NCBI GenBank assembly: GCA_951406725.2
Contig: OX597831.1
Span: forward strand, 14,012,001 to 14,076,000
Direction of reading: 5' to 3'
From: Octopus vulgaris
Taxonomy: Eukaryota
DNA length: 64,000 nt
In this document: positions 34,026 through 35,710 of the stretch, one piece after another
How the letters are laid out: every line of letters begins with the position of its first letter
How positions within the stretch are numbered: position 1 is the stretch's first letter
Made by a program: the position numbers and the translations under genes
Notes under the pieces: generated by a model
What the model saw: only the letters and a program-made list of their open reading frames with translations
What the model was told of the DNA's origin: nothing
Database searches by the model: none

Positions 34026-35710
34026 AGTTCTATATTTAAGAGATGAGGAATTATGTTCATTATTTACACTATTTACATTTGACATATATTTGTCCTCATC
34101 TTATTTGTTGTTAACACAATGTTTCAACTGATATACCCTCCAGCCTTCATCAGGTGTCTTGGGGAAATTTCAAACCTGGGTTCTCATTCCTAAGGTATTT
34201 TTCGATATTGTCTTTATTATTATTATTATTATTATTATTATTATTATTATTATTATTATTATTATTATTATTATTATTATTATTATTATTATTATTATTA
34301 TTATTATTATTATTATTATTATTATTATTATTATTATTATTATTATTATTATTATTCAGTAGTTTTATTTTTATTTTTATAGCGTGCTTTCACTTCACTA
34401 CCGAGCACAGCTCTGTGTGCCTTGGGTATGTGCTGTGATTTGTTGTGATGATCTGATGGTTATTGTATGGAAAGTGTTCTGCGTAGGATGTGTGCAGTGC
34501 CTAGTAGTGCAATTTTCTGTATGTTATATGTGTTTGTAAGTCCTGGTGTTTTTGTTATGTATTTGTCTGAATATTTTTTTATCATGCCTAATGCACCTAC
34601 TATGATAGGAATTGTTTCTGTTTTCAGATTCCACATTCTAGTTACCTCTATTTCCAGGTCTTTGTATTTTGAGAGTTTCTCCATTTCTTTTAGAGACACG
34701 TTGTCATCTGCCGGTATTGATACATCAATTAGAAAGCATTTTTTTTCTTCATGATCTCTGACAACTATATCTGGTCTGTTGGCCTTAATTTCTCTATCTG
34801 TGTGTATCGGCATATCCCAGAGTATGGTTGCTTTCTCGTTTTCTGTGACCTTTTCTGGTGTGTGCCTATACCATCTTTTTTCTGTTGTTATTCCATAATG
34901 TTGGCATAGCTTCCAACGTATGTAGGTTCCAACTCTGTCATGTCTGTGAATATATTCCTTCTTAGCCAAGACTGGGCAGCTAGAGATAATATGATTTATT
35001 GTTTCTTGTCCATCTCCACATATTCTGCAGTTACTTGTAATATTTCTTTTCATTACATGTTTTTGGTAATTTCTGGTGGGGAGGCTTTGGTCTTGTGCTG
35101 CAATTAAAAATCCTCTGTTTCTGCTTTGAGTCCTGAGCTTCTCAACCATTGCTGGGATTTTTCTTTGTCTATTTCTTTTGCGTTTAGTTTAGTCCAGTAT
35201 TTACCATGAAGGGGCTTTTCTTGCCATCGTTTTATCATGGTTCGTTGCTGTTCTATTTTTAGTTTGGATTTCATTTGTTTTATAGCTTTTGTTGTTTCTT
35301 CATCTTCTTCTTCTTCTTCATGTTTATTAGGTGGTATGATTTTTTGTTTGTATTTGTCAGCTTCCTTAAATACTGAGAACAGTTTTTTGTTTTGCTCGTG
35401 TTTTGCCACTATCTGGATCAGTTTTCCTTCCTTCTGTAGTAGATATTTTTGCAGTCCTATGGTGGTTATTTTATTATTATTATTATTATTATTATTATTA
35501 TTATTATTATTATTATTATTATTATTATTATTATTGTTATTATTATTATCTAGGTCACTGTCTGGAATCGAACTCAGATTCTTGGGGTTAGTAGCCCGCG
35601 CGCTTAACCATCACACAATATGCCTGTGGAAGGTGTATCAGCCGAAACGTTGTGTTAACATCAAACAAGATGAGGACAAATATCCGTCAAATGTAAATAA
35701 TGTAAATAAT
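34026..35710 (-). mobile_element. tRNA-(AAT)n-hammerhead element with inverted half-copy, between (TA)n tracts
   Basis: Tail and hammerhead 34026-34213 (hammerhead 34113-34158), split (ATT)n, tRNA-like head 35552-35625, plus-strand half hammerhead and tail 35627-35710. Confidence 0.8.
34357..35471 (-). mobile_element. 5'-truncated R4/Dong-clade non-LTR retrotransposon (CCHC knuckle + restriction-like endonuclease)
   Basis: CRICGDGQETINHIISSC, HRHD, RPDIVV..LIDVSIP and KLSKYKDL. One frameshift near 35110, stop at 34460. Long (ATT)n on both sides. Confidence 0.92.

Follow-up and report, generated by a model that had tools for sequence, protein, structure and literature searches.

The window analysed here, 64,000 nt of Octopus vulgaris DNA, holds at 34026–35710 a tRNA-like head, a hammerhead motif and an inverted partial copy set between (TA)n tracts. 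The question raised by this locus is to what kind of element it belongs and which enzyme inserted it. An earlier note had described it as a SINE-like unit mobilized by a Penelope RT/GIY-YIG enzyme instead of a LINE. The reading that we consider probable is that it is the pLTR of a Penelope-like element (PLE), inserted as two head-to-head arms, one tailed and the other tail-less, and that the tRNA-derived front of this pLTR is likely an internal Pol III promoter from which most of the short copies would be made.

Structure of the copies in the window

Read along the minus strand, the 34 kb copy begins with the tRNA-like head, followed by (AAT)n, the 1.1-kb insert, more (AAT)n, a body of 181 nt and finally (TA)n. 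Its features, with the basis of the call in brackets, were as follows.

33973..34025, no strand: (TA)n flank, the target of the 34 kb copy, masking the TSD (sequence)
34026..34206, minus: tailed arm; pLTR body equal to PLE ORF codons 1–55, ATG at 34187 (match to P0006 residues 18–59, 42 %); contains AATGTAAAT repeats and a 30–35 nt tail
34153..34147 and from 34125, minus: core CTGATGA and GAAAC, respectively, of the minimal hammerhead in the tailed arm, CpG-decayed (sequence)
34207..34356, minus: 3′ part of the pLTR (AAT)n spacer (sequence)
34357..35472, minus: nested 5′-truncated R4/Dong-type non-LTR retrotransposon (domain layout, copies elsewhere)
35473..35551, minus: 5′ part of the pLTR (AAT)n spacer (sequence)
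35552..35629, minus: tRNA-derived head, its 5′ end a short palindrome before tRNA +1 (host tRNA profile)
35573..35564, minus: intact B box GTTCGATTCC; the A box of this copy is decayed
35627..35710, plus: inverted tail-less arm, body positions about 65–151, overlapping the head arm by 3 nt
35711..35833, no strand: second (TA)n flank (sequence)

The inverted partial copy reported to start in hammerhead stem II was confirmed, with TGGAAGGTGTATCAGCCGAAACGTTGTGTT at 35627 on the plus strand and the arm beginning in the 5′ strand of that stem. The arm is 84 nt long and 88 % identical to the minus-strand arm, and both outer ends of the copy adjoin (TA)n in the sequence, as claimed. It had also been said to run out through the tail; it does reach (TA)n, but it ends about 30 nt short, at about body position 151 of 185. 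This one-sided tail is itself a Penelope signature. Treatment of the whole of 34026–35710 as one unit did not hold, as the middle, 34357–35472, is a separate Dong-type LINE that had been overlooked.

Two further copies were found in the window.

17340..18033, minus: long tail-less arm of the second copy, head 17972–18033, body 17340–17500
18034..18045, plus: 12-nt tail-bearing arm of the second copy
17330..17339 and 18047..18056, plus: left and right copies of the 10-bp TSD TTTATAGGAA, enclosing the unit 17340–18046
4501..4839, minus: third copy, with the PLE GIY-YIG coding end (4839–4669) joined to a tail-less body (4658–4501), head deleted

The tiny inverted tail piece described for the 17 kb copy is real: CATCTCTTAAAT at 18034 is beyond chance and is enclosed by the 10-bp TSD. 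Its placement ‘at the same place’ as in the 34 kb copy was half right, in that an inverted tail piece is present but the polarity is mirrored, the tiny arm being tailed and the long arm tail-less. The third copy, read from its junction, is an in-window link to the autonomous element described below.

The long (AAT)n between head and body of the 17 kb copy holds another short insert. A second, apparently non-coding element lies in the (AAT)n spacer of many copies, at 17864–17939 and also in L007, L114, L116, L154, L163 and L210. The spacer has thus served at least two families as a landing pad, the non-coding one possibly being a Dong-dependent passenger. Elsewhere in the window, 20170–20285 forms a near-perfect hairpin of about 115 nt, a weak Rfam MIR9408 look-alike and possibly another fold-back insertion. 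Other minimal-hammerhead-like motifs occur in unrelated repeat families, at 36549–36590 and 60171–60200 in the window and at L105:1500, L038:2316 and L078:3572.

Insertion geometry across the family

Two sets of copies were compared. Set A comprised the 29 best body matches besides the window itself and is biased to tailed copies. Set B comprised position-ordered places on one contig (C1), located by a hammerhead pattern that gave 4845 matches against 1 for the reversed control; it was made up of 30 loci plus 40 stretches from the remaining 70 places listed. Exclusion of L105, which belongs to another hammerhead family, and of the duplicates L087, L101 and L104 left 66 loci, and L108 was also excluded from arm-end, pair and TSD counts, leaving 65.

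Head-to-head arms were present in 38 of these 65 loci, so that the inverted tail pieces on which the Penelope assignment had been based are not rare. Arm 3′ ends in set B fell into two discrete classes (n=109), 48 at positions 179–185 and 56 at 128–160, with none at 158–178. The short ends fall within the A/T-rich loop that a predicted 9-bp stem closes. In 34 of 37 set B pairs a tailed arm was combined with a tail-less one, and in none were both arms tailed (P 5e-8 versus independence); over all sets, 54 of 58 pairs had one tailed and one short arm. Direct body repeats were found in only 2 of the 66 loci (L106 and L140).

A TSD score of at least 8 was obtained for 25 of 38 set B units and all 14 set A units, compared to 15 of 304 mismatched flank pairs. 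The duplications enclose both arms and are 8–16 bp long, mostly 11–13 (about 12 bp). The preference for (TA)n targets suggested by the 34 kb copy did not extend to the family: (TA)5 was present within 25 nt of 3 of 109 set B arm ends, against a background of 1.2 %, and the flanks of set B insertions were 71 % AT versus 63 % background.

In 46 pairs, derived variants were shared between the arms of one insertion 2.5 times more often than between randomly paired arms (11 sites, P 0.002), which points weakly to a common template of both arms. A lineage marker at body position 58 was discordant in five and shared in three of the eight informative pairs, so that at least some events are compatible with two templates or with a tandem RNA supplying two pLTRs. 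Pure fold-back as the origin of all pairs was unsupported.

Two unusual arrangements were also seen. At L107–L108 (G000:C1:4719596–4724247), one inverted-pair insertion together with its flank is itself present twice, inverted. In L205:946–1921, L206, L208, L209, L213 and L224, mini-elements consist of a pLTR and about 170–200 nt of ORF, after which the sequence jumps to another head or body. This would suggest that the template is switched recurrently or that RT has a further start site near ORF position +350.

The autonomous Penelope/Poseidon element

A search for an autonomous PLE ORF sharing the hammerhead and tail had been suggested, and one was found that shares head, hammerhead and tail. 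RT or GIY-YIG sequence lies directly before the head in L109, L117 and L135. Among GIY-YIG-end loci (the best 30 of 150 scored protein matches), the ORF runs into the head or spacer in all 30; a BLAST match to head or body follows right behind the stop in 28, with L174 lacking a head, and the other two are cut after the spacer and the first head bases. At the other end, the body tail leads directly into the ORF in about 20 of 30 N-terminal loci, and L193 is a pLTR–ORF–pLTR arrangement in which the tail continues in frame into the N-terminal domain. The resulting order is ORF end, 28-nt spacer, tRNA-like head, (AAT)n, ATG, hammerhead, tail and the rest of an ORF of about 840 aa.

The hammerhead ‘body’ consists of the first 55 codons of this ORF. 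In P0006, an 847-aa protein that is a distant relative found elsewhere, the same hammerhead-spanning peptide forms the start (46 % over residues 18–175), and the two arms in the window translate into its N-terminal peptide. The pLTR overlaps the ORF start and carries a predicted minimal type I hammerhead with folding stems I and II and palindromic AACGTT, the same layout as the minimal PLE hammerhead described in PMC4209133.

The PLE protein is 55 % identical to P0006 and 24–28 % identical to the Neptune-type ORFs of the same genome. It is a single ORF with RT (RVT_1 in L181, E 2.7e-6) and with GIY-YIG at its C-terminus, recognized from the motif VYSIPC..G..Y.GET as aligned by eye with relatives; the PF01541 profile gave no match in L181 and is listed for some homologues. 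A zinc-finger-like RT–EN linker, a clade criterion present in Neptune and Nematis as given in PMC8557442, is absent from the protein, which places it with Penelope/Poseidon. Judged by these protein features and the ORF linkage, the pLTR unit is that of an EN+ PLE of the Penelope/Poseidon clade.

Mobilization by a Penelope RT/GIY-YIG enzyme rather than a LINE is strongly supported, the element’s own ORF being linked to the pLTR. The view of a SINE with an unusual PLE partner fared differently, as the unit is that element’s own pLTR plus the first 55 codons. The family looks decayed in the copies examined: no single copy had an open frame longer than 569 aa, and no intact full-length ORF was found. 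A peptide search with the 55-aa body product returned only two octopus gene models, each holding repeat pieces. In the octopus gene model P0001, which starts with the element’s first 37 codons, these are fused to a cysteine-rich protein that appears by eye to be TNF-receptor-like, a possible exonization or prediction error.

A Neptune-type PLE was considered as the partner and rejected. The PF01541 search gave Neptune PLEs, and the head or tail adjoined their ORF in 0 of 30 loci and 0 of 20 longer stretches. Young Neptune-type families were noted in L061:1906–5587, L062, L071 and L074, with a 781-aa frame in many copies and a long upstream frame before it; a pattern search found no canonical hammerhead near their ends.

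The nested Dong-type element

The insert at 34357–35472 contains a CCHC zinc finger and a restriction-like endonuclease end (zf-RVT, E 8.5e-6), with one frameshift near 35110 and a 3′ UTR from 34462, and a longer relative in L194 matches R2 structures. It shares the finger, the endonuclease end and a TAA-repeat target with R4/Dong elements; only the last 1.1 kb is present, and the clade is taken from domain layout and target, not from a tree. Dong of Bombyx sits in TAA repeats (PMC3774820), and Dong-R4 is reported as recently active in Octopus vulgaris (PMC13282606, which gives class counts only in the part consulted). It is 98.6 % identical to the pieces in L090 and L099, versus a median of 93 % for the host PLE family (78 long alignments). 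We read the middle 1.1 kb as a later Dong-type insertion into the (AAT)n spacer, younger than the host PLE.

This piece bears on another explanation, that of a LINE-dependent SINE with the inner Dong element as its partner and inversions arising from LINE twin priming or recombination. A Dong-type fragment indeed lies inside the 34 kb copy, and similar pieces adjoin 5 bodies among the 65 set B loci (in L090, L091, L092, L099 and L123). The Dong copies are, however, much younger than the PLE family by the identities above, and a single segment is present in both arms of the PLE insertions, a repetition that is not produced by L1-type twin priming on one RNA. The tail, which could have matched a LINE 3′ UTR, is PLE coding sequence like the rest of the body and has nothing in common with the Dong 3′ end. 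The explanation is refuted by the ORF linkage, and we regard it as highly improbable.

Short and ORF-linked copies

A dependent SINE could still exist if solo head-and-body copies acted as their own Pol III masters and used the PLE protein in trans, which was in essence the view of the earlier note. Genome-wide counts of exact 20-mers were 11849 for the body, 5148 for the head, 865 for the spacer 60 nt upstream and 76 for the 5′ ORF, although motif mutability may differ. Head-bearing copies thus outnumber spacer-bearing ones by about 6:1, and of 45 short arms 25 retain the A box motif and 33 the B box motif, both as a SINE would have it. Adineta pLTRs alone can mobilize other sequence in trans according to PMC3846280, and non-autonomous PLE derivatives have been proposed for retrozymes (bioRxiv 10.64898/2026.07.22.740005).

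Against this, no diagnostic site or allele distinguished 48 short arms, which start at the head, from 51 ORF-linked ones (smallest P 0.024 among 141 tests), and their divergence was similar at 4.0 and 4.8 %. In view of this lack of diagnostic differences, the short copies are filed as SINE-like products of the PLE’s own promoter and not as a separate SINE. The PAc element of Anolis, as described in PMC11167929, needs the first 172 nt of its ORF in the template, which is beyond the extent of the inserted copies, so solo copies may be poor templates. A tRNA SINE is defined as a separate non-autonomous lineage with a LINE-shared 3′ end and simple repeats, whereas the short copies here are continuous with the ORF and terminate 3′ in PLE coding sequence, at either of two discrete points. 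From this comparison no independent SINE lineage is evident, although a short-only lineage could be present in the full genome, and we consider the SINE explanation unlikely.

The tRNA-derived head and the probable promoter

A profile of 12 host tRNAs matched the head, with E 8.5e-5 in L168 and E 0.025 in the window. A tRNA covariance model aligned all 73 head positions with the stems broken and the A and B boxes kept, and the best scores among 30 host tRNA loci were to two arginine-type tRNAs, by a small margin and with the anticodon loops identified by eye. Neither the window nor 25 loci yielded a tRNA with ARAGORN, and Rfam gave neither tRNA nor hammerhead, just microsatellite look-alikes (for the window, among the matches listed, 150 of 339).

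Of the 41 set B arms that reach the 5′ end of the head, 31 stop within −20 to +8, where 9 % were expected from the upstream truncation rate. These comprised 10 that are symmetric at the palindrome, 15 that join an unrelated point of the other arm and 6 without an inverted neighbour within 35 nt. An ordinary Pol II PLE with a captured tRNA-like piece might give such ends if the palindrome or hairpin made the cDNA fold back or switch template at the head. The spacer is in fact an imperfect inverted copy of the head’s first 17 nt, the 10 symmetric ends are as fold-back would give, Adineta Penelope is described as having palindromes at its inverted junctions (PMC3846280), and L211 and L228 run from one unit into the next. 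The other 21 ends are asymmetric or have no inverted neighbour, however, and since 15 of them join an unrelated point, a hairpin alone is insufficient to explain the head ends. Retention of the A and B boxes despite loss of the tRNA stems also argues against this explanation, as does the T-run content described below, and we hold it to be rather improbable. RNase P cutting at the head appears unlikely because the acceptor stem is broken. The pile-up is best explained by an RNA whose 5′ end would lie at the head.

TTTT ends Pol III transcription. The sense strand of the 2.6-kb majority track (depth at least 16), which keeps one frameshift, contained no TTTT. For the 2.5-kb ORF part, 2.9 were expected under codon shuffling (P 0.028) and 5.2 under a base-frequency model (P 0.0013), with P 0.08 for depletion under a dinucleotide model. 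Runs of A4 and T3 were also somewhat low in the majority track (P 0.06 and 0.05), and the single copy L181 had 3 TTTT versus 3.0 expected. The depletion in the PLE ORF is modest. Two Neptune families of the same genome had 8–9 TTTT per ORF, at or above expectation. For metagenome relatives (27 tabulated of 79 fetched), TTTT was in excess in most of the closest, and the relatives with T-rich repeats (L261–L263, L267 and L305) were at or above expectation, unlike the 2.6 kb of the octopus element. Together, the 5′-end pile-up at the head and the absence of TTTT would fit transcription by Pol III, perhaps of the mRNA itself.

Expression was examined in three raw RNA-seq runs, with 6 in 100 of each read. 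In all three the depth followed DNA copy number, the two directions were about equal and there was no pile-up of starts or ends, which is what passive transcription inside host RNAs gives and has no bearing on a germline Pol III transcript.

A metagenome contig (L264, 1–4564), from another organism, repeats a 2791-nt Poseidon-type unit in perfect tandem; the unit’s frame is intact, and a B-box-like motif and (AAT)n precede the hammerhead. It contains no TTTT in the matched 1.7-kb RT–EN region and two per unit near the hammerhead; over the whole frame there were 2 versus 4.1 expected (P 0.18), or 7.8 in a second model (P 0.004). Its head did not match the tRNA covariance model at E 5, with just the B-box half at E 1.1. 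This tandem relative hints at a second PLE with a tRNA promoter.

Proposed model

For the preferred reading, a pLTR inserted as a tailed and tail-less pair, the following steps are proposed from PAc biochemistry as described in PMC11167929. The element’s GIY-YIG would cut both target strands about 12 bp apart, and each 3′ OH would prime RT at either the tail end or the A/T-rich loop 30–50 nt inside. Joining of the two cDNAs would follow, either through microhomology of their truncated ends or at the palindrome that precedes the head. Pol III would start a few bases before the head and, without TTTT, would continue across the ORF and into the following tandem unit. The Dong-type element entered the (AAT)n spacer later.

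A more far-reaching version, which we put forward tentatively and with some doubt, is that the whole mRNA of a coding Penelope is made by Pol III from a captured tRNA promoter, with the ORF kept TTTT-free. The same promoter would spawn tens of thousands of SINE-like copies, and a SINE would thus be born inside its own partner.

The family offers thousands of dated events fitting a two-start-site model that has been shown in vitro for one element only, and the rule of one tailed and one short arm constrains the priming of both target strands. If the head is a Pol III promoter, this would be a rare coding retrotransposon read by Pol III, raising the matter of translation of an uncapped RNA and of the role of the hammerhead. 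A very abundant octopus ‘tRNA SINE’ is likely to be misfiled PLE sequence.

Comparison with known systems

The inverted geometry has been published for EN+ PLEs (PMC3846280, PMC8557442). Pen2a of Adineta has an inverted pLTR, a 31-bp tail, a TSD of 9–10 bp and palindromes at junctions (PMC3846280), and PAc, a Poseidon element, has two RT start sites and cuts and extends both strands (PMC11167929). As far as these sources describe them, PAc and Pen2a resemble the octopus element in a pLTR lying over the ORF start, a pLTR hammerhead, two RT start sites with a one-sided tail of 30–40 nt, an inverted 5′-truncated arm, AT-rich targets and partial tandems, with a TSD of 8–10 bp versus about 12 bp in octopus. 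The promoter in their pLTR has been described as Pol II-like (TATA/Inr in Pen2a). In octopus, by contrast, a tRNA-derived A/B-box segment and (AAT)n together make up nearly all of the stretch from stop to ATG, and it is at this segment that most copies begin. Among the literature matches listed, none described a PLE pLTR with a tRNA or Pol III promoter, and subscription journals, Repbase Reports or supplements may hold such a description.

The TRIMp3 elements Cassandra, Helenus and Ajax likewise carry a small-RNA-derived Pol III promoter inside a retroelement terminal repeat; as described in PMC10886601, they are non-autonomous LTR elements with PBS/PPT and TSDs of 4–5 bp, whereas the octopus carrier encodes RT and GIY-YIG. 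In SM-alpha and Sj-alpha of Schistosoma, too, a hammerhead comes after a Pol III promoter, and in tandems each unit is transcribed from the one upstream; but these repeats are non-coding, with no PLE ORF or partner named in the part of PMC6765202 consulted, and the octopus hammerhead belongs to the minimal PLE type and is situated in coding sequence. Non-LTR retrozymes are similarly short hammerhead sequences related to pLTRs and proposed users of PLE enzymes; they are defined as head-to-tail tandem arrays of non-coding units, with no tRNA head described in the portion consulted (bioRxiv 10.64898/2026.07.22.740005), whereas the octopus copies are dispersed head-to-head pairs. The insertion geometry and the use of PLEs by non-coding derivatives are already in print, and the unusual part of the octopus element is the tRNA-derived promoter segment in its pLTR.
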